A stretch of 55,721 bases of DNA from a virus. Taxonomy: Duplodnaviria; Caudoviricetes. Positions within the stretch are counted from its first letter, which is position 1. Every line of letters begins with the position of its first letter. The position numbers were made by a program, and so were the translations under genes. Where the stretch lies: positions 1 to 55,721 of IMG/VR virus record IMGVR_UViG_3300017730_000010; one strand, given 5' to 3'. Shown in pieces: positions 1 to 27,158 of this stretch. The notes under the pieces are model-generated. The model did not search any database. It saw only the letters and a program-made list of their open reading frames with translations, and was not told the origin of the DNA.

Positions 1-81
1 TGCACCAAGCACAACTCAATGACTTTGCTTGGGTAACTCTTCTTCACTCGTTAAGAGATGACCACAGAAAAGATTTAGACC

Positions 82-110
82 TTGACTAATCAACAAAACT
101 AAACTATATT
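82..110 (+). promoter_or_regulatory. sigma70-type promoter, probably leaderless (TTGACT-N17-TATATT, ATG 7 nt downstream)
   Basis: -35 at 82-87, -10 at 105-110, ATG at 118. Confidence 0.7.
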
Positions 111-117
111 ATATATT

Positions 118-387
118 ATGGAATTAACCACAGAACAAAGAATCGCAGTTATCGCTAAAGCAGTCGAAAACTCAAAATCTATAACGCCATCTCAATCGGT
201 AGAAGAATTTATCGCAGAGATTAAAACTGAAGATGTTCTTGTCGAGCATGGTTTGCTTGATACTCAGAAGAACGATTTAGAAGATGAATCACAATTTTTT
301 CTTACTCAGTCTGCTGAAGAGATTGACGAAGAAGATCAAGAGTTTGGTGTCTCGAAAGAGATGCGAGGCGTATACAAAAACAACTAA
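118..387 (+). CDS. hypothetical acidic protein (89 aa)
   Basis: ORF directly behind promoter; E/D-rich. Confidence 0.7.
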   Translation: MELTTEQRIAVIAKAVENSKSITPSQSVEEFIAEIKTEDVLVEHGLLDTQKNDLEDESQFFLTQSAEEIDEEDQEFGVSKEMRGVYKNN

Positions 388-403
388 ACCAAAAGGAATA
401 ATT

Positions 404-652
404 ATGCAATCAGAATTCTCATTCATTAAACAAGCTAACGCAGTAGAGGCTTACAAACCTTTGCAAGTAAATCGCCAAGGCGATAAGATGTGGTTCTCTT
501 ACAAGAACGCAGTTGGCACAATCGTCAACGCATACTATGATTATGCGACTCGTTCGTTTAAGTCAGTAGTTAAAGGCAGTCAGTACGGAGACGGAGTTGC
601 GATTCGCAATCTTGTTGCTCGTCCTGTTGTAGAATCCGTTTTGAAAGGATAA
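404..652 (+). CDS. hypothetical protein (82 aa, start re-called at MQSEFSF)
   Basis: AAAAGGAA RBS before ATG 404; avoids long overlap with upstream gene. Confidence 0.7.
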   Translation: MQSEFSFIKQANAVEAYKPLQVNRQGDKMWFSYKNAVGTIVNAYYDYATRSFKSVVKGSQYGDGVAIRNLVARPVVESVLKG

Positions 653-656
653 GAAA

Positions 657-722
657 ATGACTTGGGACATACTTTTACTTTCGCCTTGGCTATTCGTATT
701 TTACATGATGTTTACAAGCTAA
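657..722 (+). CDS. micro-ORF, hydrophobic peptide MTWDILLLSPWLFVFYMMFTS
   Basis: 4 nt after upstream stop, AAAGGA upstream, TAATG coupling to next ORF. Confidence 0.45.
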   Translation: MTWDILLLSPWLFVFYMMFTS

Positions 723-778
723 TGGAACTTATAATATTATTTATCATGGCTTATTGTTTTTATCGTATGGTTAATTAA
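722..778 (+). CDS. micro-ORF, hydrophobic peptide MELIILFIMAYCFYRMVN
   Basis: TAATG stop/start overlap with previous ORF. Confidence 0.4.
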   Translation: MELIILFIMAYCFYRMVN

Positions 779-799
779 AGTTGGTTGAGACCCCTGTCC

Positions 800-871
800 T
801 AAGTGACTGACTATCAAGCACTTGGGGCGGGCGGCGGCCAGCCACCTAAGTGACTGAGCCTTAACAACTTA
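800..871. repeat. paired-palindrome element, copy 1
   Basis: TAAGTGACTGACTATCAAGCACTTG + 22 bp GC spacer + TAAGTGACTGAGCCTTAACAACTTA. Confidence 0.9.
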
Positions 872-1112
872 CAGAACCATTAAGTTCGTTTATTAGCTCG
901 TCTAACCTTGGAAGGTCAAGTCCCGAATCGTTCCAAGCGACACCATCGGGTGTGCGGTATCCGATTGCAGAGTCTCCGCTAGTGTCTTTGATGTCGTCAA
1001 CAAATTGCTGATAATCTTGACAATCCCTTGCGAAGTGGTAAAGACCTTCGTCGTTTTGAATCCAAAGGGCGACGTTCCAGGTCTGACGATTTTTCCATCC
1101 GTTATAGCTCAT
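861..1112 (-). CDS. small conserved-type phage protein (YNGWxNxxTWNVALW family)
   Basis: N-terminal motif recalled from many small phage proteins; stop codon lies inside element 1. Confidence 0.8.
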   Translation of the reverse strand: MSYNGWKNRQTWNVALWIQNDEGLYHFARDCQDYQQFVDDIKDTSGDSAIGYRTPDGVAWNDSGLDLPRLDELINELNGSVSC

Positions 1113-1237
1113 AGGTTTTCGGTGTTGTGTCCTGCTCTCCTCATTGAGTGGAGGGCTTCTTGACGGGTCATATTGAATCGGGACATGAGATACATGAGTA
1201 AGTCATTCCCTGTGAGTTGTTGGTTTCTGTCTGTCAT
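1109..1237 (-). CDS. hypothetical protein (42 aa, MTDRNQQLTG...)
   Basis: TTGACA-N17-GATAAT promoter at 1244-1272; ATGA overlap with next gene. Confidence 0.65.
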   Translation of the reverse strand: MTDRNQQLTGNDLLMYLMSRFNMTRQEALHSMRRAGHNTENL

Positions 1238-1249
1238 GATATAATTATC

Positions 1250-1435
1250 TTATATTTTATCGTTTGTGTCAAGGATATTTCCAAGAAAATTTACTTGTTT
1301 TATATCGTAGCCTTTAGCTTCTGATTTTGCAATTCTTAAAGCTTTTGATTGACCTTTTACTTCATCCACTAATCTACCAAAAGAAAAGATTTGAAAAAAT
1401 TGTACAAAGTTTGGGTTGCGTCTTACTGAGATCAT
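1250..1435 (-). CDS. hypothetical protein, paralog of 6171-6362
   Basis: shared pattern NxNF..F.I..FG(R/K)L(V/I)D..K...AL.IA. Confidence 0.75.
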   Translation of the reverse strand: MISVRRNPNFVQFFQIFSFGRLVDEVKGQSKALRIAKSEAKGYDIKQVNFLGNILDTNDKI

Positions 1436-1436
1436 A

Positions 1437-1661
1437 TTAGTTCCATTTGAGGTTTTTGAGACTTGTGTGTTTCTTTAACCACCTACGAAGGTGGTGAAAT
1501 CCATTACTTGACCAATGATTTGAATATGGGGTGATATTTGGATCTTGCAAGACGACTTTATATCCTTTTGCCGTATTTACAATTTCCTTAATGTCATTGC
1601 ATTGGTGCATCTGTTTCATTATCTTTCTGTTGCCCTTGCCCGAGTGTCCTCCTTTAGCCAT
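1437..1661 (-). CDS. hypothetical basic protein (74 aa)
   Basis: AGGAGG RBS upstream; tight operon packing. Confidence 0.75.
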   Translation of the reverse strand: MAKGGHSGKGNRKIMKQMHQCNDIKEIVNTAKGYKVVLQDPNITPYSNHWSSNGFHHLRRWLKKHTSLKNLKWN

Positions 1662-1679
1662 TGTATTATCCTCCTTGAT

Positions 1680-1796
1680 TTAGTATGAAAGGGCTTTTCT
1701 ATGTTTAACCCTGCGTGAATATTTAGACTTATCTTTCATTGGACGAGCCTTGGTGAAAAGAATTGGGATTCTTACTTTAATCTTTTTTTGCTTCAT
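1680..1796 (-). CDS. small basic protein (38 aa, MKQKKIKVRIP...)
   Basis: promoter-like TCGCTA-N17-TAGTCT at 1803-1831, ATG 6 nt downstream. Confidence 0.55.
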   Translation of the reverse strand: MKQKKIKVRIPILFTKARPMKDKSKYSRRVKHRKALSY

Positions 1797-1956
1797 ATAT
1801 AAAGACTAAAGCACTTTTCAAACAATAGCGAGAAAAAAATTAACTAAATACAACTTTTAATTTTATCTAATAATAATTGATAAGAGATACTAATAAATAG
1901 GAACAAATACATAATACTATAAATACATTGACTTATAGTATATAAAAGCTTTATTA

Positions 1957-2027
1957 TAAGTTGTTGATTATCAAGCACTTATGGAATCGGCGGCCAGCCA
2001 CCTAAGTGTCTGACTATTAAAGACTTA
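1957..2027. repeat. paired-palindrome element, copy 2
   Basis: TAAGTTGTTGATTATCAAGCACTTA + TGGAATCGGCGGCCAGCCACC + TAAGTGTCTGACTATTAAAGACTTA. Confidence 0.95.
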
Positions 2028-2029
2028 TG

Positions 2030-2242
2030 TTAGAAGTCGTATTGAGCGTGGTAGCCCCAATCAATATCCTCGTTCTCAGAGAATTGCCGAAGAGCCTGGC
2101 GATCTGCTTCCTCCTCCATTCTGCGGCGGATGATTTGCTGAGACGCAATCTCGGCAAGGACGGATTCCCGTTCCTCGATTTCGAGGTCGGTCATTCCGAA
2201 GGCGTGAGCGGTGCGGGCGAGTGAATCATTTTCGTTTTCCAT
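2030..2242 (-). CDS. hypothetical acidic protein (70 aa)
   Basis: own promoter TTGACT-N17-TACATT (2249-2277); stop 2 bp from element 2. Confidence 0.75.
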   Translation of the reverse strand: MENENDSLARTAHAFGMTDLEIEERESVLAEIASQQIIRRRMEEEADRQALRQFSENEDIDWGYHAQYDF

Positions 2243-2304
2243 ATATACAATGTAGCAGTCTGAGGGCGTGGAGTCAAGGAATATTTTTGTTATTTTACAT
2301 TTTA

Positions 2305-2375
2305 TAAGTCGTTAACTATCAACTACTTACGACGCTGGCCGCCCGCGCCCTAAGTGCCTGAAGGGCAAGGACTTA
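2305..2375. repeat. paired-palindrome element, copy 3
   Basis: TAAGTCGTTAACTATCAACTACTTA + CGACGCTGGCCGCCCGCGCCC + TAAGTGCCTGAAGGGCAAGGACTTA. Confidence 0.95.
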
Positions 2376-2378
2376 CGA

Positions 2379-2528
2379 TTAGGCTTTGAACAAGCCGTAG
2401 CGACGACTGCCGTCGTTATTTGCAAGGCGACGACGCAAGAGCCTCTCGGCATCTTTTTTTCGCATCGCGATGGTTTCAACTTGCCAAACGGATCCCGCTT
2501 GGTTGAGAATGGATTTTAGTATGAACAT
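2379..2528 (-). CDS. hypothetical protein (49 aa, start re-called at MFILKS)
   Basis: AAAAGGAAA RBS; stop 3 bp from element 3. Confidence 0.65.
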   Translation of the reverse strand: MFILKSILNQAGSVWQVETIAMRKKDAERLLRRRLANNDGSRRYGLFKA

Positions 2529-2544
2529 AATTTTCCTTTTGTTA

Positions 2545-2727
2545 TTAGTTAAAAAATGGATGATGGCGAACATCACGAAGACGGATGCCGTGAACGATAT
2601 TAGTTCTGTACTTGCGAACATTTGCACAAGCTCCCCAAGTTGGGTGATTGATTGGATCATCCGTAAGTTGGTAGATTTTCTTGCAACGAGTGACGACGAC
2701 ATCGCCCTTTTTGAATTTGGTTTTCAT
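2545..2727 (-). CDS. hypothetical protein (60 aa, start re-called at MKTKFKKGDVV)
   Basis: AAAGGAAA RBS; FKKGDxV start typical of small SH3/KOW-like phage proteins. Confidence 0.65.
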   Translation of the reverse strand: MKTKFKKGDVVVTRCKKIYQLTDDPINHPTWGACANVRKYRTNIVHGIRLRDVRHHPFFN

Positions 2728-2731
2728 ATTG

Positions 2732-2965
2732 TTATTTCCTTTTTGTGAAAATTGGGTTATTGAGAAACTTGTCCATATCGGCAGATTTTTGTTTTGCCTC
2801 GGCAAGTTGAGATTCAACCTTTGCAAGCTCAGGAAGAGCGAGCATTTCGATTGCCATTTCAACATTGGCATGGGTTGCAGGAGTTGCGTCTTTACGCATC
2901 TTTGCAATGGCGTTATTGATTGACTCGATACGAGATTCGAGAGTGAATATTTCCATTTCTGTCAT
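2732..2965 (-). CDS. hypothetical helical protein (77 aa)
   Basis: promoter TTGCAA-N17-TACCTT (2972-3000), ATG 6 nt downstream. Confidence 0.75.
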   Translation of the reverse strand: MTEMEIFTLESRIESINNAIAKMRKDATPATHANVEMAIEMLALPELAKVESQLAEAKQKSADMDKFLNNPIFTKRK

Positions 2966-2990
2966 ATATATAAGGTAAACTAGTTTTGAG

Positions 2991-3134
2991 TTAATTGCAA
3001 ACTTTTTCTTTTAGTTTCTTTCCGTGGGCTTCGGCTTCTTTGTAAGTGTCAAAGCTCCCTGCGTAGTTGCCGTTCATGTATAAGACAAAATGCTCATTGC
3101 ACCAAGTCGAGAAGGTTTTGATTTCGATTTCCAT
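2991..3134 (-). CDS. hypothetical protein (47 aa, MEIEIKTFSTW...)
   Basis: ORF filling the gap, 3 nt after upstream stop. Confidence 0.6.
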   Translation of the reverse strand: MEIEIKTFSTWCNEHFVLYMNGNYAGSFDTYKEAEAHGKKLKEKVCN

Positions 3135-3137
3135 TTT

Positions 3138-3320
3138 TTAATTTCTGCTTGAAGTTAACTTATGTTGAGCTTGCCACTCGGCAAGCCAATCTTGATTCTG
3201 CTTTAGCAGATCACGAGAGATCTTGACAAGAACGGGGTCGCTCTCGTTTCTGATAACTTCCTTGTGACGGAAGATATCGGCTTGAACCTTTTGGAAGAGT
3301 AGGTGTCGATCATTAATCAT
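3138..3320 (-). CDS. hypothetical protein (60 aa)
   Basis: promoter TTGCAA-N17-TAGATT (3327-3355). Confidence 0.7.
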   Translation of the reverse strand: MINDRHLLFQKVQADIFRHKEVIRNESDPVLVKISRDLLKQNQDWLAEWQAQHKLTSSRN

Positions 3321-3410
3321 ATATACAATCTAAAGGTAAAACCTAGTAATTGCAAGAAAAATCTTCTGAAGTTATTCACAAAAAAACTTTAATGGAGTCG
3401 CATTTTTTCC

Positions 3411-3439
3411 TTGACACCCTTTGACTTTTATGTTATAAT
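3411..3439 (+). promoter_or_regulatory. consensus sigma70 promoter pointing into element 4
   Basis: TTGACA-N17-TATAAT with extended TGn. Confidence 0.75.
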
Positions 3440-3451
3440 GCGGACCTTTCG

Positions 3452-3522
3452 TAAGTTGTTGGTTACCAAGCACTTACGAGGGCGGGCGCCGATGCCCTAA
3501 GTGCCTGATTATCAGTGACTTA
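3452..3522. repeat. paired-palindrome element, copy 4
   Basis: TAAGTTGTTGGTTACCAAGCACTTA + CGAGGGCGGGCGCCGATGCCC + TAAGTGCCTGATTATCAGTGACTTA. Confidence 0.95.
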
Positions 3523-3536
3523 GGATGTCAAGCTTT

Positions 3537-3803
3537 TTATTTCCAAGGATCGAAAAAAGTTGGGTTCATGTCGGCAAGGACATCGCGATTTACTTCGCCC
3601 CAATTCTTGCCATCGTGCCAAGTCATAAAGACTTTTTTACCGCAACCCTTTAGGTAGTTGAGCCATTCGTTAGCTTTTCCCAACTTGTCAAACTTGTAGG
3701 CGTAATCGAATCCGCCAAAGTGAAAGTTGCCGTCCATGCCTAAAGCAAGCCATGGTTTGCGAGGAGATCGATTTATTCCGATTAATTTTATTTGATAATG
3801 CAT
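3537..3803 (-). CDS. hypothetical protein (88 aa)
   Basis: ORF, last gene of cassette; stop 14 bp from element 4. Confidence 0.7.
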   Translation of the reverse strand: MHYQIKLIGINRSPRKPWLALGMDGNFHFGGFDYAYKFDKLGKANEWLNYLKGCGKKVFMTWHDGKNWGEVNRDVLADMNPTFFDPWK

Positions 3804-3804
3804 G

Positions 3805-3858
3805 TTAGTTTTGTTGATAGAAAAAAAGAAGAGAAAGAATAATTATCAAAGGAATCAT
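3805..3858 (-). CDS. micro-ORF, hydrophobic peptide MIPLIIILSLLFFYQQN
   Basis: ATGA overlap with upstream gene, 1 nt before downstream ATG. Confidence 0.45.
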   Translation of the reverse strand: MIPLIIILSLLFFYQQN

Positions 3859-4004
3859 TTTTTAGATTCCTCTAATTTTTGGATTTCACTCCGCAAGTAT
3901 TGCACATGAGCGTCACGAATCGAGCGAAGTGATTCTTTGCGTGAACGATTGAGTTTGTCCTGCCACCAAGCAAGATCTTTTTCTAATTGTTTTTTTGTTT
4001 TCAT
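3855..4004 (-). CDS. hypothetical protein (49 aa, MKTKKQLEKDLAWW...)
   Basis: promoter TTGTAA-N17-TATCTT (4011-4039), ATG 6 nt downstream. Confidence 0.65.
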   Translation of the reverse strand: MKTKKQLEKDLAWWQDKLNRSRKESLRSIRDAHVQYLRSEIQKLEESKK

Positions 4005-4048
4005 ATTATAAAGATAAAGTATTTTTTAAGAAGTTACAAGGAAAAAGA

Positions 4049-4279
4049 TTACTTTTGAAATCTTTTTTCTTGGATGATTTCTTGCCAAGCTTTGCGAGCA
4101 ACTTGAACGGCATTGAGAGCGTCAAGGATTGCCATGCCTTGCGTGATCGAAGATTGCCAATCTTCCTTAGAGGATTCTCCTGCGAGAAATTTGAGATTTC
4201 CCTCTGCTTTAGAGAGAGCAAGACTTAGGTCTAAGTCTCGGTTGATGTCTTTTCTTAATTCTTCTAATGTTTGATTCAT
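4049..4279 (-). CDS. hypothetical helical protein (76 aa)
   Basis: promoter TTGCAA-N17-TACATT (4286-4314). Confidence 0.75.
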   Translation of the reverse strand: MNQTLEELRKDINRDLDLSLALSKAEGNLKFLAGESSKEDWQSSITQGMAILDALNAVQVARKAWQEIIQEKRFQK

Positions 4280-4331
4280 ATTATAAATGTAATCTATTTT
4301 TTGTTAAATTGCAAGGAGAAAACGAATTATC

Positions 4332-4520
4332 TTAAGCAACCCATTTGACAAATTCAAACTTGCGGGGCAAGCCAAACTTTGCAAGGTCACGATTGAGAGA
4401 CTTAATCGAATCGTGATGTTCGCATTTGAGAATTTGATTCTCTGCGATGATGTCGCCCGTCTTGCGGTCAACGATGTTAACTTTGGCGATGAAGCCGTTT
4501 ACTCTTTTATTCTTAATCAT
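4332..4520 (-). CDS. hypothetical protein (62 aa, start re-called at MIKNKRV)
   Basis: promoter TTGCAA-N17-TACCTT (4526-4554), ATG 5 nt downstream. Confidence 0.7.
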   Translation of the reverse strand: MIKNKRVNGFIAKVNIVDRKTGDIIAENQILKCEHHDSIKSLNRDLAKFGLPRKFEFVKWVA

Positions 4521-4608
4521 ACCTAAAGGTAACACATAAACAAGGGAATTGCAAGAAAAACTTTCTAAAGTTATTAACAAATTTTTTTGCCTTGTGAGTA
4601 AAAAACCC

Positions 4609-4637
4609 TTGACAAGCAGAGCTTTTTATGTTATAGA
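4609..4637 (+). promoter_or_regulatory. sigma70-type promoter pointing into element 5
   Basis: TTGACA-N17-TATAGA with extended TGn; similar to 3411-3439. Confidence 0.55.
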
Positions 4638-4648
4638 AGCCTTACTCG

Positions 4649-4719
4649 TAAGTCATTGTCTATCAAGCACTTACGAGAGCGGGCGCCGATCCCCTAAGTG
4701 CCTGACTATCAGTGACTTA
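4649..4719. repeat. paired-palindrome element, copy 5
   Basis: TAAGTCATTGTCTATCAAGCACTTA + CGAGAGCGGGCGCCGATCCCC + TAAGTGCCTGACTATCAGTGACTTA. Confidence 0.95.
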
Positions 4720-4824
4720 GGAGGGCCAAAACCACACTATAAGGCAAGGTATTAGCGTAGCTGAAAAGGGTATTAGGATTTGTATTAGGTCTAACATATT
4801 TTTATAGAGTTGTCAAGGATTTTT

Positions 4825-5088
4825 TTAGTAAAGATATTGCTCAGTTGAATCTTCCCATACATGGGTCAACTTAAAGTCGGTAGTTTTCCAAGGTGAAAAA
4901 TCTGCCTCGCCTATCAAGGCAATTCTTTCGGATATCTCTAGCTCTAAGGGATGCACCTCTGAAGAGCCTTGCATATTGTAGACCTCTACCTCTGAAGGGT
5001 CATCCTTCAGTACACGAGTGATTTGAGCCTTGAAGCTGAAGAAGTTTACCCTACGAGTAGGAACATTTTTATTTGATTGATTTAACAT
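4825..5088 (-). CDS. hypothetical protein (87 aa)
   Basis: promoter TTGACT-N17-TACATT (5095-5123). Confidence 0.7.
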   Translation of the reverse strand: MLNQSNKNVPTRRVNFFSFKAQITRVLKDDPSEVEVYNMQGSSEVHPLELEISERIALIGEADFSPWKTTDFKLTHVWEDSTEQYLY

Positions 5089-5143
5089 AAGTATAATGTA
5101 ATGGATTTTTTAGGAAAAGTCAAGAGAATTGCAAAGTTTTTTT

Positions 5144-5497
5144 TTACCAATTCCTTGGCATTTCGTTATTGGAAAGAAACCTTTCGGCTTCGTAGGGAGA
5201 GCAACGAAGATCATCGCAGATGTCTGCAAGTCTTTCTTCTCTTGCTTCGGCACGAGATTGACGATAGCGAGTGACCTTGCAAAAGCGAGGGTCTGCTTCG
5301 GCATCTGCCATTTCTTTTAGTTGATCGAAAAGATCCCAAGAAACAATTCCCTTCTTGCAAAAGTTATAAGCACATTGCTTACGAGAGACACCTTCGATCT
5401 CGAAGATGTGGCGAGCCTTGTTTTCGTTGTAAACGCTAAGGCTTGCGTTTATTACCTTGTCGGAGACTTTGTTGAATTTGATGTATATTAGTTCCAT
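5144..5497 (-). CDS. hypothetical protein (117 aa)
   Basis: promoter TTGCTT-N17-TACATT (5543-5571), with a leader. Confidence 0.7.
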   Translation of the reverse strand: MELIYIKFNKVSDKVINASLSVYNENKARHIFEIEGVSRKQCAYNFCKKGIVSWDLFDQLKEMADAEADPRFCKVTRYRQSRAEAREERLADICDDLRCSPYEAERFLSNNEMPRNW

Positions 5498-5572
5498 AAT
5501 TTTTTTATTTTAGTAGTTTATCTTTCTTAATCTTATATATACAATGTAACACAGATGAAGCGAAAAAGCAAA

Positions 5573-5647
5573 TTATTTCTTCACTTTTTTTTGTTTAGTT
5601 ATTACGAATTTACAAAGGATTTTTTCTCTTTCAGTTAAGTTAATCAT
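5573..5647 (-). CDS. micro-ORF or gene remnant (24 aa, MINLTEREKIL...)
   Basis: promoter TTGACT-N17-TACCTT (5653-5681), ATG 5 nt downstream. Confidence 0.4.
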   Translation of the reverse strand: MINLTEREKILCKFVITKQKKVKK

Positions 5648-5752
5648 ACCTAAAGGTATCACAGAAAAGCCGAAAAGTCAAGAAAAACTTTCGACTATCT
5701 TTTTGCACAATCCTATTGCATAGATTGGCATGGTATGTGTGCAGCTGTTTCG

Positions 5753-5823
5753 TAAGTTGTTGGCTATTAGGCACTTATGGAAACGGCGGCCCGCCACCTA
5801 AGTGGCTGACCATCAATGACTTA
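5753..5823. repeat. paired-palindrome element, copy 6
   Basis: TAAGTTGTTGGCTATTAGGCACTTA + TGGAAACGGCGGCCCGCCACC + TAAGTGGCTGACCATCAATGACTTA. Confidence 0.95.
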
Positions 5824-5874
5824 CGGGTTATGTTGTGCAGTAGTATAGGACAACACTTCCGACGATTATGACAA

Positions 5875-6183
5875 TCATACGACGAGAGGATTAGGCAACT
5901 TTGTGTTGCAAAAGTGCCAATCGAATGAGTCAATGATTTCCCCATTAAGGACAGGCTCAAAGTTGACTTGGTGAACACCTGCATTGGCAATGCCGTTGAC
6001 TCGTTCGCGTGTGGTTGGAGTATTCCAACCTGCAAGTGACCACTCGACCACGCCAAAGGCGTCTCGTTTGATTATGGCGTTACCATGAAGCCAAACGGTT
6101 TGCCCGTCTGTCTCGGTGTTGCCGACTTTTTTAGATGTGCCTTGTTCAAAGGCGAGTTTGATTTGTTCGGTTACTTTTCGCAT
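5875..6183 (-). CDS. small conserved-type phage protein (LHGNxI...GWxTxTT(R/K)xR family)
   Basis: motif pattern recalled from small early phage proteins. Confidence 0.8.
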   Translation of the reverse strand: MRKVTEQIKLAFEQGTSKKVGNTETDGQTVWLHGNAIIKRDAFGVVEWSLAGWNTPTTRERVNGIANAGVHQVNFEPVLNGEIIDSFDWHFCNTKLPNPLVV

Positions 6184-6362
6184 GGTATGATTTCCCCTTC
6201 TCTTACGATTAAAACTCTTTCACCTTGCAAAGATAATTCTTTCTTTTTTCTGCTTGCAATGTTCAAGGCTTGAGCCTCTGTCTTTGTGTTGTCGATTAAC
6301 TTTCCGAAAAGTCGAATGTCGAACCACTCGGAAAAATTTGCGTTTTTTATTATTGTTATCAT
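6171..6362 (-). CDS. hypothetical protein, paralog of 1250-1435
   Basis: promoter TTGCAT-N17-TACATT (6369-6397); sequence similarity. Confidence 0.75.
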   Translation of the reverse strand: MITIIKNANFSEWFDIRLFGKLIDNTKTEAQALNIASRKKKELSLQGERVLIVREGEIIPCEK

Positions 6363-6406
6363 GTTATAAATGTAAACCTTTTTTGTAATTAATGCAAGGT
6401 AAAAGA

Positions 6407-6622
6407 TTACTTTGTGAAGTAATCTTTTACTTGTTGAGAGGTTGCCTTGCTAAGGTCGGAAATGTAAACTTCCGATTCAAACAAGTGATCTTGCTTGTGA
6501 TGCTTAATGGTAGCAACCCGAAGACCGCCCTTGATGCGATCAAGTGAGACGAGTCTCACGGCTTTATTGTTTTGCGAGGAGTGGTAAATGCCTCCGACTT
6601 TTAATCCTTTAGTAATGTTCAT
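6407..6622 (-). CDS. hypothetical protein (71 aa, start re-called at MNITKGLKVG)
   Basis: promoter TTGCAA-N17-TACATT (6629-6657), ATG 6 nt downstream. Confidence 0.7.
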   Translation of the reverse strand: MNITKGLKVGGIYHSSQNNKAVRLVSLDRIKGGLRVATIKHHKQDHLFESEVYISDLSKATSQQVKDYFTK

Positions 6623-6698
6623 ATTATTAATGTAAGCTTTTTTTTGTCGAATTGCAAGGAAAAAGAGAAAAAAGATTCGATTATTTTGTTGCACAATC

Positions 6699-6757
6699 CC
6701 ACCCCCGTTTTTTGAATTTATTTTGGCGGGCGACGCCAGCATATCGGCGGGGGGTGG
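6699..6757. repeat. GC-rich nested inverted repeat at the early/late boundary
   Basis: CCACCCCCG ... CGGGGGGTGG enclosing hairpin TGGCG-GGCGA-CGCCA. Confidence 0.6.
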
Positions 6758-6853
6758 TTTTTCTCAAAATCTAATGCAGTAATTCACAGGTAAATAACGT
6801 TTTTTGAAAAAAAATCGGCGCATTTACAAAAAATAACTGTAATATATAGTAGA

Positions 6854-7579
6854 ATGCCTAGACGCAAAAAAGCCGACATTGACGACGCTCAGGAAATAGA
6901 GAAGGTAATGACATCTCTCAATAAGACTAAGGTAAAACTTAAGAAATTAGAATTTTCTGAGAAACAGCAAGAGCTGTTAAAGATAATGTTTGATAGAGGT
7001 ACTAAAATAGTATTCATAAGTGGACCCGCTGGAACCAGCAAAACTTTTATGGCTATATACGCCGCTATTCAATTATTTAATATGGATAATAACTATAATA
7101 TTAGTTATGTAAGAACAATTATAGAGAGCGCTGATCGAGGAATGGGTGCGCTCCCTGGGAACATAGATGAAAAATTTGATCCTTTCATGATGCCCTTAAA
7201 TGATAAAATGTTCGAATTAATGAGCGCTAGTGACGTGAAAGCCTTGGATCAACAAGGCGTAATATCGGCTATGCCAATAAATTACCTTAGAGGCGCCAGT
7301 CTCAACGACAAGGTTGTTATTGCCGATGAATCTCAAAACTTTAGCGTAAAAGAGTTAATTACCCTTATTACGAGAATAGGAGAAAATACTAAAATGTTTA
7401 TTTGCGGCGACTCTATGCAAAGCGACATTAATGGTAAAAGCGGGTTTAACAAGCTTAAGGAATTATTTAATGATGATGCTAGCGCTAAACAAGGGATATA
7501 CAACTTCGAGTTTGATCACAAAGATATTAAGAGGAGTGAAATATTAAAATATATTGTTAAAAAACTAGAAAGTATATAA
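6854..7579 (+). CDS. phoH: PhoH-family ATPase
   Basis: GPAGTSKT P-loop, GALPG, YLRGASL, IADESQN, ITRIGE, GDSMQSDI motifs. Confidence 0.95.
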   Translation: MPRRKKADIDDAQEIEKVMTSLNKTKVKLKKLEFSEKQQELLKIMFDRGTKIVFISGPAGTSKTFMAIYAAIQLFNMDNNYNISYVRTIIESADRGMGALPGNIDEKFDPFMMPLNDKMFELMSASDVKALDQQGVISAMPINYLRGASLNDKVVIADESQNFSVKELITLITRIGENTKMFICGDSMQSDINGKSGFNKLKELFNDDASAKQGIYNFEFDHKDIKRSEILKYIVKKLESI

Positions 7580-7580
7580 A

Positions 7581-7775
7581 ATGAAAGAGGGGGATGAAAT
7601 TTGTTTTTGGCACGACCATAAGGATAGGTGCGGCAAAATAATCAAGATGTTTACTCAAATAGGCTTCGAGGATCATGGTAAAGAGTTTGTTGTCATTTTA
7701 CTTGACGACTCCAGGGGTTTATTTAATGATTGCGTTATTAAAACTGAAAAAAATAAATTAAAAATAATTAATTGA
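7581..7775 (+). CDS. hypothetical protein (64 aa)
   Basis: ORF 1 nt after phoH stop. Confidence 0.6.
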   Translation: MKEGDEICFWHDHKDRCGKIIKMFTQIGFEDHGKEFVVILLDDSRGLFNDCVIKTEKNKLKIIN

Positions 7776-7808
7776 ATTAATTAATAATTATTATATAATA
7801 ATTAACAT

Positions 7809-8054
7809 ATGAAGCAATTAAAATATTTTACAGCCAGCTGGTGCGGGCCGTGTAGATTTTTCAAACCATATATTATTGAGTTAATTAGAGATGGAGAAAA
7901 CATAGAAATGATAGATATAGATGCCAACCCAGAACAAAGTCAAAAATATCAAATAATGTCAGTCCCAACGTTAATCTTTGAAGAGGATGGAGAAATTTTC
8001 GCTAAGAGAAATGGCGCTATGGACCCAAGCGAAATAAAAGCTCTACTAAAGTAA
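7809..8054 (+). CDS. thioredoxin
   Basis: FTASWCGPC active site, cis-Pro motif SVPT. Confidence 0.92.
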   Translation: MKQLKYFTASWCGPCRFFKPYIIELIRDGENIEMIDIDANPEQSQKYQIMSVPTLIFEEDGEIFAKRNGAMDPSEIKALLK

Positions 8055-8289: not shown

Positions 8290-8579
8290 TGAGAATTAAA
8301 TATTGTAAATCATGCGGTCATAAAAACCAGTTCATAGGGCTGGAACCAAAGTTTTGTTCAAGTTGCGGGGCGAGTTTTCAAAAAGGAACTTCTCAAGTTA
8401 CAAAATCTAAAATTGCTAATAGACAAAAACTTAACGAGGATGAAACAGATGTTGATTTCGTTCCTAATATAGCCAGTCTACAATACAGCGTATCTCCATT
8501 TGAAAAGAAGACATTCAAAATGGAAGAAATGTTCGATCTTGAAGATGATGGCGGAAACTCCGAAAAGAAAAAGAGGTAG
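8289..8579 (+). CDS. zinc-ribbon protein
   Basis: CKSCG...FCSSCG. Confidence 0.75.
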   Translation: MRIKYCKSCGHKNQFIGLEPKFCSSCGASFQKGTSQVTKSKIANRQKLNEDETDVDFVPNIASLQYSVSPFEKKTFKMEEMFDLEDDGGNSEKKKR

Positions 8580-9279
8580 ACCAAAGAAGGTAAAATTTGA
8601 GGATAAATATGAAATTATTGACACTCAAATTGCAAAAAGGAAAGGTAAGTGGTTTCTTAAGGCTATATCCTGGATAAGCTGGGAAGATGTTGGGCAAATA
8701 ATAAGATCTCATATATATAATAAATGGCACCTGTGGGATCAAAAAAGACCGTTAGAACCTTGGTTAAATAGAATCATATCTAATCAGATAAAAAATATAT
8801 TAAGAAACCATTATGGTAATTTTATTAGACCTTGCGCTCAATGCCCTTTCAACGCCTCTGGATCTATTGACAACATAAATGATGCTAATTTCTGTAGTTG
8901 GACTAAAACTGGCAAGCAAGATAGTTCTTGTCCTTTATTCTTGAAATGGGAAAAGACTAAAAAAAGCTCCTTCCAAATAAACATGGCTTCAAGTATAGAT
9001 GCTAATGAAAATATAAACGTTGGACTCTGTAAACACTTTGACATTGACCATTCTAAAAATAAATTAAATAAATTAATGAAAGAAAATTTAACAGAAAAAC
9101 AATATCATATATATGAGATGCTATATATAAAAGATTTAGATATTACCGAGGCTGCTGAAAAATTGGGTTACAAAAGCAATGAGAAAGGCCGTAAGGCGGG
9201 GTACAAGCAAATAAAGAACTTTGAAAAATTATTTAAAGATACTGCTAAAAAATTAATATCCGAACACGACATAGTATGA
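8545..9279 (+). CDS. RNA polymerase sigma-like factor with N-terminal AT-hook and Cys4 insert
   Basis: region-2-like WDQKRPLEPWLNRIISNQIKN; region-4-like LTEKQYHIYEMLY...EAAEKLGY; start re-called. Confidence 0.65.
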   Translation: MMAETPKRKRGRPKKVKFEDKYEIIDTQIAKRKGKWFLKAISWISWEDVGQIIRSHIYNKWHLWDQKRPLEPWLNRIISNQIKNILRNHYGNFIRPCAQCPFNASGSIDNINDANFCSWTKTGKQDSSCPLFLKWEKTKKSSFQINMASSIDANENINVGLCKHFDIDHSKNKLNKLMKENLTEKQYHIYEMLYIKDLDITEAAEKLGYKSNEKGRKAGYKQIKNFEKLFKDTAKKLISEHDIV

Positions 9280-11011: not shown

Positions 11012-11937
11012 ATTTCAATTGTAAGATATGTGGTGCTGAGTTTGATTCTGAACGATCACTACATGCACATATTAAGGCTCATAAAATATTATTATCAGAA
11101 TATTATATTACATACTATCCTAGATATAATTTATATACAAATGAGTTAATTCCTTTTAAGAACAAAGATCAATATTTTTCTACTTATTTTTCTAATAGTA
11201 TTGAAATGGAAAAGTGGGCGGCGACAGCCGACGACGAACATGTACAACAAATATTACTTGATATATTAAATAAAAGAATAATTAGTAAGAATTTACAATA
11301 TGCGCCGAATCATTTAGAATTAATGCTACTTGAGCTTCCTACAATAGAGATGTATAAAACATATTTCGGTTCATATAATGAAGCCTGTCGCAGGCTTCAG
11401 GTTGAGCCGTTACTAAATAAAAGTATAAAAAGTAAATTTTTAAACTTCGATAAAAATTTAAAGGACATGCAGATTATGATAGACACTAGAGAGCAAACTC
11501 CCTTAAAATTCAAGAACAGTAAACCTCATAAATTAGATTTTGGTGATTATACAGCAGCAGGAGGATACTATAATAAAACATATGTGGATAGAAAAAGCGA
11601 AACGGACTTTAAATCAACAATGACTGTGGGGTATGATAGATTTAGAAAAGAATTGCAAAGAGCTAAAGAATTCGACTCATTCTTATACATTGTTACAGAA
11701 AGCTCTATTGATAAAATAATAAACAATAATAAGTATGGTCCGCATCGATCAAACTTAACATTTGTATGGCATCAGATGAGAATGTTATCACATGACTTCG
11801 CTAGGAACTGTCAATTTATATTTTCTGGAGGAAGGAACTGGTCGCAAGAGTTAATTCCAACATTACTTTATGCAGGTAGAGAAATGTGGCATTCCGATGT
11901 ACAATATTATATAGACAAAAGAATTTTAAAATTATGA
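10996..11937 (+). CDS. C2H2 zinc finger + ERCC4/XPF-type nuclease
   Basis: CKICG...HIKAH; IDTREQ, GDY, DRKS..D. Confidence 0.8.
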   Translation: MDKTVNFNCKICGAEFDSERSLHAHIKAHKILLSEYYITYYPRYNLYTNELIPFKNKDQYFSTYFSNSIEMEKWAATADDEHVQQILLDILNKRIISKNLQYAPNHLELMLLELPTIEMYKTYFGSYNEACRRLQVEPLLNKSIKSKFLNFDKNLKDMQIMIDTREQTPLKFKNSKPHKLDFGDYTAAGGYYNKTYVDRKSETDFKSTMTVGYDRFRKELQRAKEFDSFLYIVTESSIDKIINNNKYGPHRSNLTFVWHQMRMLSHDFARNCQFIFSGGRNWSQELIPTLLYAGREMWHSDVQYYIDKRILKL

Positions 11938-13802
11938 GCTGGGAACCAGGCAATCAAAAACGAAACCCTAAGGAATATGACATAAATAAACTGTTATTAG
12001 AAACAGAAGGGTTTATGGACGAAAGGGAAGCTAAAATTAAACTTTATGAATTTCTTAGAGAAAATATTACTTTTAGCACAAATCTCATAGCTGGAGTTGA
12101 CTTATTTCCATTTCAGCATATGGCTATTAAGGCAATGTTCGAAAGTGACTATTTCTTAGGCATATGGTCTCGTGGTATGTCAAAGTCTTGGACTACTGGT
12201 ATTTTTGCGTTCATGGATGCTATAATGAATCAGGGTGTTGAGATTGGTATATTGTCTAAGTCTTTTCGTCAGGCTAAAATGATTTTTAAAAAAATTGAAG
12301 ATATAGCTGCCAAGCCCGAAGCTAATTACCTAAGCCAATGCATAAGTAAAGTGACAAAAGCTAACGATGAATGGGTAATGCAAATAGGAGAAAGCTCAAT
12401 AAGAGCTTTGCCGCTAGGTGATGGATCTAAGCTTCGTGGTTTTAGATTTCATAGAATAATCATCGATGAAATGCTTCTTATGCCTGAAAGGATATATAAT
12501 GAGGTTATAGTGCCATTCTTGTCTGTTGTTCAGAATCCAAAAGAAAGAGAAGATTTATTTAATTTAGAAACTCAACTTATTGAAGAAGGCCAAATGAAAG
12601 AAGAAGATAGGTTTGTGTGGCCCAACAATAAACTTATAATGTTATCTTCTGCTAGTTACAAGTTTGAATATTTATATAAATTATACCAAAACTTTGAGGG
12701 ATTAATTAACCAAGGGGAGTCGGAAGGAAAAAACAAAGCTTGTAGGGCTATAATGCATTTTTCTTACGATTGCGCACCTAAACAACTTTTTGATGAAAAC
12801 CTTGTGGAACAAGCTAAGTCAACCATGAGTCAAAGTCAATACGACAGAGAGTTTGGGGCTATATTTACAGATGATAGCTCTGGTTACTTCAAGATATCAA
12901 AAATGAAAGAATGTACCGTAGAGGAAGGTGTTGAACCCTCAGTAGAAGTAAAAGGTGAAGATGGAGCAAAATATTTATTGGCATTTGACCCTAGTTGGGC
13001 CGAGAGTGAAAGTTCTGACGATTTTGCAATGCAGGTGTTTAAATTGAATGAAGAAACTAAGCAAGGAACTTTAGTTCATGTATACGCTATGGCAGGAGAA
13101 AGTTTAAAAAATCATATTAATTATTTTATTTATTTATTAGAAAATTTTAATATTGTATCTATTGTTGGGGATTATAATGGAGGAGTACAATTTTTAAACG
13201 CCGTAAAGGAAAGTTCTATATTTAAACATACCAAACTTAATATTAATATAATCCAAACTGAATTTGACGATATCGAAAATTACCACAAATCATTAAGAAT
13301 GGCTAAAGCTGAATTTTCTAAAGATGGTATACCTTGCTGCTTAAGAAAACCTACCTCTGGATGGATCAGAAGAGCAAACGAATTATTGCAGGCTAATTTA
13401 GATCATAAAAGAATATGGTTTGCGTCTAGAGCTATAGATGAAAGTTACCACAAGCAAAGAAAAAAGAAAATACCAATTAAAAACTTAAAATTCTTAAATT
13501 TTGCAGACGACGAAGAAAAACAAAATGATGCCGCTAGGATGATTGATTTAGTTGAGCATCAGCACGATATGATGGATTATACAAAAGGGCAATGTGCGTT
13601 AATAGAAGTAAAATCGTCTCCGCAGGGAACCCAAACTTTTGATCTACCTTTAAACTTAAAAAGAACTACTGGGCCAAGTAAAGCTAGAAAAGATTGTTAC
13701 TCTGCTTTAGTATTGGGTAATTGGATGATTAAGATACATAACGACGTTAATGATTATAAGGACGAAGTAGTTAATTCATTCGTACCAATGTTTATAAAGT
13801 GA
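11934..13802 (+). CDS. terL: terminase large subunit
   Basis: Walker A SRGMSKS, LRG, Walker B IIIDE, RNase H-like LAFDPS and RKDCYSA; start re-called at ATGA overlap. Confidence 0.92.
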   Translation: MSWEPGNQKRNPKEYDINKLLLETEGFMDEREAKIKLYEFLRENITFSTNLIAGVDLFPFQHMAIKAMFESDYFLGIWSRGMSKSWTTGIFAFMDAIMNQGVEIGILSKSFRQAKMIFKKIEDIAAKPEANYLSQCISKVTKANDEWVMQIGESSIRALPLGDGSKLRGFRFHRIIIDEMLLMPERIYNEVIVPFLSVVQNPKEREDLFNLETQLIEEGQMKEEDRFVWPNNKLIMLSSASYKFEYLYKLYQNFEGLINQGESEGKNKACRAIMHFSYDCAPKQLFDENLVEQAKSTMSQSQYDREFGAIFTDDSSGYFKISKMKECTVEEGVEPSVEVKGEDGAKYLLAFDPSWAESESSDDFAMQVFKLNEETKQGTLVHVYAMAGESLKNHINYFIYLLENFNIVSIVGDYNGGVQFLNAVKESSIFKHTKLNINIIQTEFDDIENYHKSLRMAKAEFSKDGIPCCLRKPTSGWIRRANELLQANLDHKRIWFASRAIDESYHKQRKKKIPIKNLKFLNFADDEEKQNDAARMIDLVEHQHDMMDYTKGQCALIEVKSSPQGTQTFDLPLNLKRTTGPSKARKDCYSALVLGNWMIKIHNDVNDYKDEVVNSFVPMFIK

Positions 13803-24909: not shown

Positions 24910-25194
24910 ATGAAATCAGAAAGAGAATTACTTGAGTTTCAAGTTCTTCGCTCTATCACTAATCTATATAAGTCGTTTTTGACTTTAGTAGAAGATTTGA
25001 GCGAAGATCACAAAGAACAGTTTGAAAGACTGAAAGAGGCTCTCCCAGAGAGTGAAGATATAATAAGACAGGCTGAATACCTCGATGAAGGTCAGCTTAA
25101 TTATTTAAGAAAAAAAATACTTGATTCTGGCAACGATGTTAGAAGAGAACTTTTCGCATGTATGGAAAATTTTGAAATCAAGTTTAAAAAATAA
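24910..25194 (+). CDS. hypothetical helical protein
   Basis: ORF with AAGGTA RBS-like motif. Confidence 0.7.
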   Translation: MKSERELLEFQVLRSITNLYKSFLTLVEDLSEDHKEQFERLKEALPESEDIIRQAEYLDEGQLNYLRKKILDSGNDVRRELFACMENFEIKFKK

Positions 25195-25240
25195 ATTTAT
25201 TTATTATAATATATAATATAAACCAAGGTATAAGGTAACT

Positions 25241-26122
25241 ATGAAAATTGACGAGAAAAAAATATTGTATTCTTTCGAGGTAAATGTCGAGAAAGAAGTT
25301 GAAGAAACAGTCGAGAAAAAGAAAAAACGCAAGAATAAAGAGACTGGTAAAATGGATGTTATTACAACTAAAGAAACAACTATGGTAAAAAAAGATGTTC
25401 CTTTTAATATTGTAATCAAGAAACCTACTAGAACACAACTTGAGGACGGAGACATGTTTTATAGCTTAGAGTTGAATAAGTTTATTAAAATGGGTCTTTT
25501 AACTAAAGCTATGCTTGCTAAGCAGTATGGAACTCAGGGTGGAGTTTGGACAGAGAAAGAACAAAAGCTTTACGCTGAATTGATATACAAAATGCATCAG
25601 AAGCAATTGGAGATCCAGCAGTTCTCTATTCTTGGCGAAAATGGAAAGCTATCTGATAGACAGAAGTTGAAACTTGATATTGCTATGAGAGAAATGGCTG
25701 AATTGAAAAAAGAATTAACTGAATACGAAATGGTTCAAAATTCCTTGTTTGATCACACCGCAGATATTAAGGCTAGAAACAGAACTATTATGTGGTATAT
25801 TCTGCATCTAACTCATTTTGCCGAAGGTGAAGATGAAGATGCAATATTAGAAGAGATGTTTGAAGGTGATGATTTTGAAGACAGGTTCTCTCTATACGAA
25901 GATAAAGAAGAGGGTGGAGATGAAGTATATGAAAGAGCTATTGACAAAATTTCTTCTATAGTGACTATTTGGTACATCAGCGGAAATCAAGAAAAAGAAA
26001 GTCTAGAAGAGTTTATGGAACAAATGAAAAAAGACTCTGAAGATTTAGAAAACGATCTTGAGGAAGATTTAGAGGAAGATTTAGAGGAAGAGTCTGAAGA
26101 GGCTGAAACTCAAAATGCCTGA
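25241..26122 (+). CDS. putative tail assembly chaperone
   Basis: between tail tube and tape measure; acidic and helical. Confidence 0.5.
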   Translation: MKIDEKKILYSFEVNVEKEVEETVEKKKKRKNKETGKMDVITTKETTMVKKDVPFNIVIKKPTRTQLEDGDMFYSLELNKFIKMGLLTKAMLAKQYGTQGGVWTEKEQKLYAELIYKMHQKQLEIQQFSILGENGKLSDRQKLKLDIAMREMAELKKELTEYEMVQNSLFDHTADIKARNRTIMWYILHLTHFAEGEDEDAILEEMFEGDDFEDRFSLYEDKEEGGDEVYERAIDKISSIVTIWYISGNQEKESLEEFMEQMKKDSEDLENDLEEDLEEDLEEESEEAETQNA

Positions 26123-27125
26123 TGATCTGCCAGATAAAAAACTTCTAGAAAAAATATTTAGAGACATAAGGCTAGGTTTCTCTTCTTTTATCTATGAGGG
26201 AAAGACTTGTTTTGTTAAACACGCTTCTCACCATCAAACAGATATCCTTAACCAGTCTTACGAAGAATACTATAATAAGGCAACCTCAAAAGGGGTAATG
26301 ACCGAAAAAGAACTTCTTGAAACTTTAGAGAAACAAGAAGTGTGGAGTTCACAAGATGAAAACCTTTTCGAGAAGAAAGAAATTGAGATGGAAAATCTCA
26401 AAAAAACTTCTGCAAATTTAATTGTAAAAGCTCAAAGAAATTCTTTTGAAAAAAGAATAAAAGATCTTGAAGAAACTTTATTAAAGCACAGAAATAAAAG
26501 AAACTCTTTAGTTAAGAATACTGCTGAAGAATACGCCTCCAAGAGGGCTAATGAAATTTTTATGTTTAATTCTTTATTTAAAGATAGAGAATTTAAAGAA
26601 ATGTTTTTTTCTGAAGAAGAGTTTGATCATTTAAATAAAATTGAACTCAGCGAAGTTTATATTGAATATAATAAATCAATAGAAATATTTAGTCAAGAAA
26701 ATATAAGACAGCTGTCAATAGAATCTTTTTTTACAAGTTTATTTAATTTATTTGATAAAGATGTTTCTAATTTTTATGGCAAGAAAGTATTTGATTTAAG
26801 TTATTACCAAATCAATCTATTAAACTATGGAAAGTTATTTCTTAAAATATTTGAAAATAAAGAGATCCCAAAGGGAATACAAAGAGACGCTGGAAAAATA
26901 TTAGAATATTTAGAAGAGTCGGAGACAAAGAAAAAGGCCGCTAAAACCGCAAGTGAAAAAGCTCAATCTGCAGCTGGGTTTTCCTATAAGGGCGCGACTA
27001 GAGAAGATCTTGAAGAAGCGGGAATCAATACAAAAGGTGCTATGGACATACATGACTTGGCCAAGGAAGAAGGCAAAGATGGCGAATTAGATATGGAAGA
27101 TTTAATGAAAATCCATAAAAAATAG
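26115..27125 (+). CDS. putative tail assembly chaperone 2
   Basis: immediately upstream of tape measure. Confidence 0.45.
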   Translation: MPDDLPDKKLLEKIFRDIRLGFSSFIYEGKTCFVKHASHHQTDILNQSYEEYYNKATSKGVMTEKELLETLEKQEVWSSQDENLFEKKEIEMENLKKTSANLIVKAQRNSFEKRIKDLEETLLKHRNKRNSLVKNTAEEYASKRANEIFMFNSLFKDREFKEMFFSEEEFDHLNKIELSEVYIEYNKSIEIFSQENIRQLSIESFFTSLFNLFDKDVSNFYGKKVFDLSYYQINLLNYGKLFLKIFENKEIPKGIQRDAGKILEYLEESETKKKAAKTASEKAQSAAGFSYKGATREDLEEAGINTKGAMDIHDLAKEEGKDGELDMEDLMKIHKK

Positions 27126-27158
27126 TGTAACTAAAATTACACAGGTAAAAGGAAAATT

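Follow-up and report, generated by a model that had tools for sequence, protein, structure and literature searches.

Among described systems, those closest to the locus examined here are the promoter-early stem-loop (PeSL) regulatory cassettes of T4-type phages (PMC2839356, PMC4122927). In PeSLs the stem-loops terminate transcription and the promoter is active in reporter assays (PMC2839356), and mini-circles are shown to arise from recombination between neighbouring copies (PMC2839356, PMC4122927). The present study concerns a 55,721-base IMG/VR virus record (IMGVR_UViG_3300017730_000010), the whole of which is referred to below as the window, and a 71-72-nt double palindrome (the element) that recurs among small early genes beside its phoH gene. 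An earlier note on this DNA had described the region as an integron-like or shuffling array of self-contained cassettes, and had named PeSLs as its closest precedent. PeSLs indeed proved the best match in behaviour, with self-contained early units and breakpoints at linkers, and as the note had also remarked the structure of the element differs. At a probability of roughly 55%, we interpret the region as a hyperplastic early-gene array of promoter-led small units, in which the element forms a transcription-unit boundary and PeSL-like recombination takes place at shared linkers.

A repeat search together with a search for the half-site pattern identified six elements of 71-72 nt each within positions 800-5823. 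Every element comprises two 25-nt near-palindromes, TAAGT-N3-TG-N5-CA-N3-ACTTA, on either side of a GC-rich, itself palindromic spacer of 21-22 nt, and because the second half-site approximates the reverse complement of the first, the whole is a palindrome of palindromes. Half-sites with at most one mismatch number 12 against 0.04 expected, a count reached in none of 100 shuffles, and the same pattern search (≤1 mismatch) found no further half-sites anywhere else in the window. The elements are located at 800-871 (E1), 1957-2027 (E2), 2305-2375 (E3), 3452-3522 (E4), 4649-4719 (E5) and 5753-5823 (E6). Four of them had been listed in the earlier note and are real; E5 and E6 had been missed, bringing the total to six. 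The direct orientation claimed for them holds for E2 to E6, which share a minus-strand polarity according to position-weight orientation, but not for E1, which lies between convergent genes and is weakly opposite (plus strand). Open reading frame (ORF) coordinates and the sequence also bear out the reported stop-codon distances: the stop of gene 861-1112 lies inside E1, and those of genes 2030-2242, 2379-2702 and 3537-3803 lie 2, 3 and 14 nt from E2, E3 and E4, respectively. The corresponding distances are 105 nt for E5 (gene 4825-5088) and 51 nt for E6 (gene 5875-6183). Both strands of the six elements fold strongly (-19.6 to -39.9 kcal/mol in 12 strand folds), with a fold z-score of -2.8 or lower in eight of the 12 and of -1.2 to -2.2 in the remaining four. 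An Rfam scan of the region returned a single chance-level match (COG2908, E 0.8), and ARAGORN found no tRNA there. E4 and E5 are 90% identical across 77 nt. A duplication of about 190 nt (3339-3525 versus 4538-4722; 76-90% identity) takes in the element together with an inward promoter and the promoter that comes first in the following interval, indicating that element and promoters move together.

The intervals between elements hold one to five tiny minus-strand genes, as the note had stated, with recounted totals of 5, 1, 4, 4 and 2-3 ORFs. From E1 to E2 (861-1796) these are 861-1112 (DUF7249), 1109-1237, 1250-1435, 1437-1661 and 1680-1796. The interval from E2 to E3 (2028-2304) is the 277-bp single-gene unit noted previously, with one 70-aa ORF at 2030-2242. 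E3 to E4 (2379-3320) contains 2379-2702, 2732-2965, 2991-3134 and 3138-3320; E4 to E5 (3537-4520) contains 3537-3803, 3855-4004, 4049-4279 and 4332-4520; and E5 to E6 (4825-5497) contains 4825-5088 and 5144-5497. Three additional minus-strand ORFs between E6 and 6657 constitute a conserved trio beside phoH (5875-6622), namely 5875-6183 (Kyano_Gp96-like), 6171-6362 and 6407-6622. Most of the 19 cargo ORFs scanned are without a match, and the matches that passed are to families whose function is unknown (DUF7249, Kyano_Gp96 and a few PHROGs). The minus-strand genes 1250-1435 and 6171-6362, situated in different intervals, encode paralogues of one small early protein family (32% identical), of which relatives carry one or two members. 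Predicted structures of 6407-6622 (pLDDT 81) and 6171-6362 (pLDDT 88) gave no PDB match at E ≤ 0.001; the best fold matches of the former are SH3/Tudor/KOW-like barrels, which are non-significant (E ~0.05).

Many of these genes are preceded by a composite of promoter and start codon, TTGnnn-16..18-TAnnnT-5..7-ATG, of which the minus strand of 800-6700 contains 10 copies (0.10 expected), the plus strand of the same region none, and the remaining 49 kb four. Working down the minus strand, the composites are located at 6620-6657 (TTGCAA-17-TACATT-6-ATG, with a leaderless-looking geometry; gene 6407-6622), 6360-6397 (gene 6171-6362), 5645-5681 (heading the interval from E6 to E5, with an ORF of ~24 codons behind it), 5086-5123 (gene 4825-5088), 4518-4554 (heading E5 to E4, gene 4332-4520), 4277-4314 (gene 4049-4279), 4002-4039 (gene 3855-4004), 3318-3355 (heading E4 to E3, gene 3138-3320), 2963-3000 (gene 2732-2965) and 2240-2277 (the one-gene unit 2030-2242). 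The idea that each interval begins with its own promoter therefore applies below E6, E5, E4 and E3, and only in part below E2, where a weaker match was recognised by eye. About half of the ~20 early genes carry the composite, several interval-internal genes included, so that assigning a promoter to every gene would be too strong. The distance of only 5-7 nt between -10 box and ATG implies, from geometry alone, putatively leaderless mRNAs. Within the window, every element has such a composite about 25-130 nt beyond it.

Relatives were retrieved from IMG/VR as contigs via PhoH and the element pattern, and yielded 101 distinct element-plus-flank sequences with 100 distinct cores, after copies <60 nt from a locus end had been dropped. 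In three longer records (G001-G003) the half-sites are limited to 7-10 kb beside phoH, for example at 25176-32721 of the 205,857 bases of G001; G002 has one stray match. Weight-matrix orientation of the copies converged, with a median of ~16 bits separating both orientations, which means that the element has polarity despite its symmetry. CC or CG usually stands before the entry side, and letters resembling CGAAAG come after the exit side. Polarity tracks the direction of the flanking genes, including the plus-strand operons of L008, L013 and L014. Of 85 elements with 600-nt flanks (16 were dropped), 40 have the stop of a sense ORF of at least 50 codons ≤20 nt from the entry edge, 13 of them using the TAA of the first TAAGT, and 17 have the stop of an antisense ORF ≤20 nt from the exit edge, being convergent-gene cases like E1; because 15 nt of flank entered the orientation matrix, this test depends in part on the orientation. 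In another clade (L124, L127, L139, L141, L144 and L145) the element has a different conserved exit extension with repeated GATCTT / AAAAGATC words.

Gene order is not identical across these relatives, in agreement with the shuffling proposed in the earlier note. A map of ORF families indicates that the late, plus-strand genes downstream of phoH are strictly collinear, while the small-gene region varies in content, order and orientation. Between the window and its closest relative (L006, ~80% identity), one homology block (1215-2027) runs up to the edge of E2 and another (2305-2544) starts at that of E3; L006 lacks the intervening unit (2028-2304), and other blocks are reordered. The same one-gene unit (2030-2242) has other neighbours in L001 and L003, where homology spans E2 to the ATG of the gene. 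Nor are the breakpoints unrelated to the elements, as homology blocks end at element edges above expectation. Based on 26 of 41 loci with at least two elements (near-duplicates removed; blocks of at least 150 nt; ends <40 nt from region borders dropped), 102 of 847 distinct block ends (12.0%) fell in or ≤15 nt from an element, compared with 5.6 ± 0.8% (maximum 8.9%) in 1000 uniform draws, although these counts are pairwise comparisons of related genomes and not independent events, which tells against our interpretation. The ends peak sharply at the far edge of the element, with 58 in the 0 to +20 bin versus ~11 per 20-nt bin elsewhere. Collinearity did not resume within 400 nt for 66 of 78 far-edge ends (46 distinct positions, 19 loci) and likewise for 68% of the other block ends.

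Breaks occur at the exit edge of 25 elements, where the upstream gene is conserved, and at the entry edge of 25, where the downstream promoter is conserved. Where the break is at the exit edge, the near hairpin has an identity of 0.72 at variable positions and the far hairpin one of 0.61 (background 0.44 and 0.53); entry-edge breaks are less clear (0.58 and 0.60). Such a drop in identity on approaching the break suggests that crossing over occurs within the element, and probably not at a single fixed position. Promoter-ATG sites show an equal enrichment of block ends between -60 and +20, at ~36-46 per bin versus 1-8 inside genes. The breakpoints between relatives thus lie at elements and at promoters alike, and we infer that recombination proceeds at these shared linkers without a dedicated recombinase.

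Alternative joints were also present in metagenome contigs from two seawater DNA runs, and because these contigs have 85% likeness to the window they represent relatives in the sample and not variants of one strain. Some joints are at gene starts (1229>5081, 2243>2698 and 2724>2967, the last of which removes exactly gene 2732-2965) and others at or in elements (3477>5115, 4722>6455, 6136>3447 and 5716>1957). Joints that go back to an earlier position (6136>3447, 5110>4505 and 4111>2962), seen in metagenome contigs at 85% likeness, could equally stem from relatives with another gene order. Contigs from RNA runs (X18, X19) cover only gene-internal pieces, none of them crossing an element, and this absence of cover is no evidence either way.

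The breakpoint pattern might alternatively reflect a phage integron, in which the element is the site of dedicated sequence-specific recombination and a recombinase reads the folded or double-stranded TAAGT-N15-ACTTA palindromes to excise or insert cassettes. The sharp breakpoints at element edges, a core that is invariant over 100 copies unlike that of ordinary stem-loops, and the resemblance of a gene plus its 3' element to an ORF plus attC are in keeping with this proposal, and a wobble bias toward the antisense strand in the outer helix (see below) would suit single-strand folding of one strand. Against it, no profile match to tyrosine recombinases (Phage_integrase, PF00589), serine recombinases (Resolvase) or the Y1 transposase (Y1_Tnp, PF01797) was found in the window, which holds ~41% of the genome, or in G001-G003, of which G001 may include cellular DNA. 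The cassettes have promoters of their own, breakpoints are just as frequent at promoters, identity declines along the element as the break is approached, and no element-free empty site was found in 355 collinear flank pairs, in which the gap is never shorter than the element. We therefore consider site-specific recombination of this kind very improbable, and the integron-like label of the earlier note is not supported, since own promoters, breakpoints at promoters and the lack of a recombinase match indicate a PeSL-like array instead.

The absence of empty sites likewise makes independent mobility of the element appear unlikely. A second alternative, that the elements are autonomous small mobile repeats of the MITE or REPIN kind inserting into intergenic DNA, would account for their anatomy as a doublet of inverted palindromes, and a dispersed 150-nt palindromic repeat with a TAAGT..ACTTA skeleton exists in one Planctomycetota assembly. 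Yet no Y1 transposase was found, no empty site was seen in the collinear pairs, and the elements keep to a single region and to the ends of genes, so that this explanation is largely refuted already and hardly tenable. The Planctomycetota repeat, a palindrome of ~150 nt with a double TAAGT..ACTTA skeleton, is dispersed over eight contigs (L096, L097, L099, L102, L104, L107, L113 and L120), often at contig ends, and single look-alikes of the element, of unproven kinship, occur in assemblies labelled Pirellulales, Entotheonella, Nitrospinota and Jettenia. We set these bacterial look-alikes aside; the search pattern itself enforces the skeleton and the Planctomycetota copies are of a different build, and no host is inferred from them.

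In the favoured reading as a PeSL-like array, most units would start with a host-type promoter whose -10 box lies 5-7 nt before the ATG, and the polar 71-nt double palindrome would close groups of units directly after the last stop codon. Judging by where it lies, its polarity and its folding energy, the element would form a strong hairpin or cruciform, possibly recognised by a protein, that ends or insulates the sense transcript. Its placement after stop codons, polarity, folding and the promoter within 25-130 nt agree with a boundary between transcription units, comparable to the stem-loop part of a PeSL. Element and promoters are the sole sequences common to otherwise unrelated units, so crossovers would fall in them, and recombination between co-infecting relatives or between copies in one genome could move, delete or replace whole units with their regulation intact.

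Several features of the element weigh against so simple a boundary function. A canonical intrinsic terminator was rejected, since the hairpin is present but has no direct T-run and a terminator scan listed none of the elements in the window. Most copies are not followed by a U-tract; 24 of 101 have an exit flank that leads directly into the AT-rich stretch and -35 box of the next promoter, and the T-runs found in 24/101 exit flanks are the AT-rich upstream part of that promoter, starting at least 8 nt away from the element. Canonical terminators of GC-hairpin and T-run are found ~20-30 nt from some elements (L013 570-598, L014, L150 and L129), which shows that the element is not simply the terminator. 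The stems are sequence-invariant without covariation over the 100 copies, and half-site positions 6-7 and 19-20, which do vary, are mostly unpaired locally. The only clearly covarying pair, columns 28/70 (CG 34, GC 31), joins hairpin 1 (right arm) to hairpin 2 (left arm). Two explicit structures evaluated on the 100 copies each have 75.5% paired cells and weak covariation and are not separable, the shuffle control over-calling for related sequences. G-U pairs are not enriched on the sense strand, and the outer helix favours the antisense strand (166 vs 82), a pattern that favours recognition of DNA or of the other strand over a sense RNA hairpin. Together, invariance and pairing pattern suggest that specific letters may be read by a protein, or that the element may function on the other strand.

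The first of these possibilities can be stated as a tentative and rather unlikely alternative, in which each element, as double-stranded DNA, serves a dimeric protein as operator or roadblock, offers it two dimer sites spaced 46-48 bp apart and regulates or blocks early transcription, and recombination is a by-product. The invariance of the four inverted TAAGTnnnTG copies, combined with freedom at the mostly unpaired positions 6-7 and 19-20, would be expected of such sites, as would the lack of a strand-specific wobble signal for sense RNA, the canonical terminators adjoining some copies and the confinement of elements to the early region. On the other hand, there is no candidate binder: the conserved early proteins match no DNA-binding family, their fold matches are non-significant (E ~0.05), and ParB was not found. 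Coupling to stop codons and polarity with transcription suit a role at the transcript level better, and the covariation of columns 28/70 is a further point against a site read purely as DNA. A PF00158 match in G001, considered as an enhancer-binding protein, was rejected as it is a ClpA/B-like protein instead.

Function on the other strand is raised by promoters that face the elements. On the plus strand, opposite to that of the genes, a sigma-70-type promoter with a 12/12 consensus and a TG before the -10 box (3411-3439) fires into E4, and a paralogous promoter-like site, TTGACA-17-TATAGA (4609-4637), fires into E5; a sigma-70-type site scoring 10/12 abuts E2. A third plus-strand motif at 5725-5742, a degenerate -24/-12-type sequence referred to as box b, ends 12 nt before E6 and faces into it. 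The element could accordingly be the 5' part of a short RNA opposite the early genes, launched by an inward promoter and acting on the 3' end of the upstream operon, for which the OOP RNA of lambda is a comparable case. Across relatives, the motif TGGCAY-N5-NTG faces into the exit edge in 15 of 101 copies and into the entry edge in three, never outward, and 13 of the 15 end precisely 12 nt short of the edge; the better wobble balance on the antisense strand points the same way. By contrast, 85 of 101 exit flanks contain neither TGGCAY nor any conserved in-register promoter motif, and among the 101 elements only E4 and one L130 copy have a sigma-70 site of at least 10/12 facing the element (the TATAGA of E5 is outside the scan rule), so that an antisense sigma-70 promoter was rejected as a general feature of the element. 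No terminator for such an RNA is evident. With most exit flanks lacking TGGCAY and the sigma-70 version found essentially at E4 and E5 of the window, an element-headed antisense RNA is a minority possibility and quite unlikely as a general explanation.

Box b itself deserves separate mention. The sigma-54 consensus has GG at -24 and GC at -12 at a fixed spacing, and use of a sigma-54-type promoter by a phage would be unusual. The copy at 5725-5742 is without GC in register, and box b was rejected as a general promoter of this phage, having one copy in the window (beside E6) and one chance-level match. The exact consensus occurs 37 times in 1.57 Mb of related loci versus none in a backwards control, with ~0.75 expected by our own estimate. 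These 37 exact sites concentrate in three distant relatives (L081, L083 and L084; PhoH ~55% identical), which possess a one-hairpin version of the element within GC-rich arms, with exact -24/-12 sites facing in from both sides, an arrangement that favours the antisense-RNA proposal. In the same three loci small genes are preceded by the box-b form. Within small-gene regions, exact -24/-12 sites are found at L081 340-850, L084 670-1500 and L045 48-1303, some of them facing across a single TAAGT-N15-ACTTA hairpin, and in L045 48-1303 long C-run/G-run hairpins directly follow the -24/-12 sites.

A more ambitious version of these ideas would make the double palindrome the recognition site of a dedicated candidate protein system, an active module that both shuts off or insulates early operons, by roadblock or by an antisense RNA headed by the element, and targets recombination. 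It draws on the invariant TAAGT-N15-ACTTA, the strict polarity, the confinement to the early region and the fixed-register inward promoters, and if true would mean a cassette system that is carried by a phage and lacks a classical integrase, but we regard it as decidedly doubtful. Under the PeSL-like reading, small genes without known function travel as ready-to-express units between conserved linkers, which would carry the PeSL principle from T4-type phages to an unrelated group whose linker is very different. The array also defines where units begin and end, so that the cargo, in which host-takeover or counter-defence genes may be present, can be cloned and tested unit by unit. The invariant linker and the inward promoters, including those of -24/-12 type in relatives, hint at a level of regulation that PeSLs are not known to have.

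The record is estimated by CheckV to be ~41% complete and is hence a fragment of a larger phage genome. Beyond the early region it encodes a PhoH-like protein (6854-7579), a PF03237-type large terminase (11886-13802), a single-stranded DNA-binding protein (SSB) and a dNMP kinase, as well as a single plus-strand ORF of 4465 aa (27159-40556) whose sole Pfam match is a tape-measure domain near its N-terminus (residues 124-315). PHROG and Pfam scans of the large ORFs of the window found no T4 core matches, and blastn of window positions 1-8000 against the GenBank phage collection gave no match. Terminase relatives have 69-94% identity among the 120 matches listed, and 1926 of 8000 scored candidates pass E 0.001. 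Among the runs listed, 17 seawater or marine metagenomes and viromes carry at least half of the sampled words from 600-7000, and the phage lineage is common in seawater and marine data. Keyword searches of the literature found neither the element nor the phage group.

Next to phoH, a plus-strand protein (8500-9279) is conserved in 79 of 80 PhoH-anchored loci; sigma-70 region 2 and a helix-turn-helix (HTH) domain are matched weakly, and a small terminase subunit equally weakly. The divergent control region between early genes and phoH (6690-6770) contains a long GC-clamped inverted repeat (CCACCCCCG ... CGGGGGGTGG) followed by a T-run, and a TTGCACAATCC box is present at 6689-6699 and again at 5703-5713. 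In the relative G001 (205,857 bases, rated 100% complete), the gene for the ClpA/B-like protein (821 aa) adjoins a Tat-signal DUF1501-like gene (99500-104500, L163). In view of these two genes G001 may be a large phage with cellular-type genes, or the record may include host DNA.

Other systems share parts of this architecture. In T7, RNase III processing hairpins lie between early genes; like the element they are conserved ~60-70-nt structures, long and imperfect with internal loops, but they are situated inside one long transcript without following promoters, whereas here each unit would have its own promoter and there is no sense-strand RNA signal. Bacterial REP, BIME and REPIN sequences are also inverted palindrome pairs after stop codons at operon ends and could stabilise or end transcripts; the present elements differ in being phage-borne and limited to one region, with no RAYT-type transposase found and no sign of independent insertion. 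Integron arrays (IntI, attC) similarly consist of small cassettes formed by an ORF and an imperfect palindromic site, and vary in content between relatives. Here, however, no integrase was found, the cassettes are not promoterless, exchange also takes place at promoters, and TAAGT/ACTTA, compared by eye, is not the attC core.

The likeness is closest to the PeSL system cited at the outset. Both systems have small genes of unknown function in a hyperplastic early region, transcriptionally self-contained units each with a host-type (sigma-70-like) promoter and stem-loops between them, and regulatory linkers that coincide with insertion, deletion and replacement breakpoints between relatives. Terminator activity, promoter activity and mini-circles are experimental results for PeSLs, while the array described here is known from sequence. 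PeSL carriers are T4-type myoviruses, and the present phage, with its PF03237-type terminase, PhoH and 4465-aa tape-measure-domain protein, is not T4-like. In addition, the linker here is a polar double palindrome of 71 nt, GC-rich in the middle and invariant in its letters, which abuts the upstream stop codon and closes groups of one to five genes rather than preceding every gene, and the promoters stand 5-7 nt from the ATG with no Shine-Dalgarno leader, some elements having an inward promoter besides. The resemblance to PeSLs is one of mechanism, not of lineage, and three features of this array are new: a double palindrome that is polar and invariant in sequence, promoters of leaderless appearance, and promoters pointing into the element.

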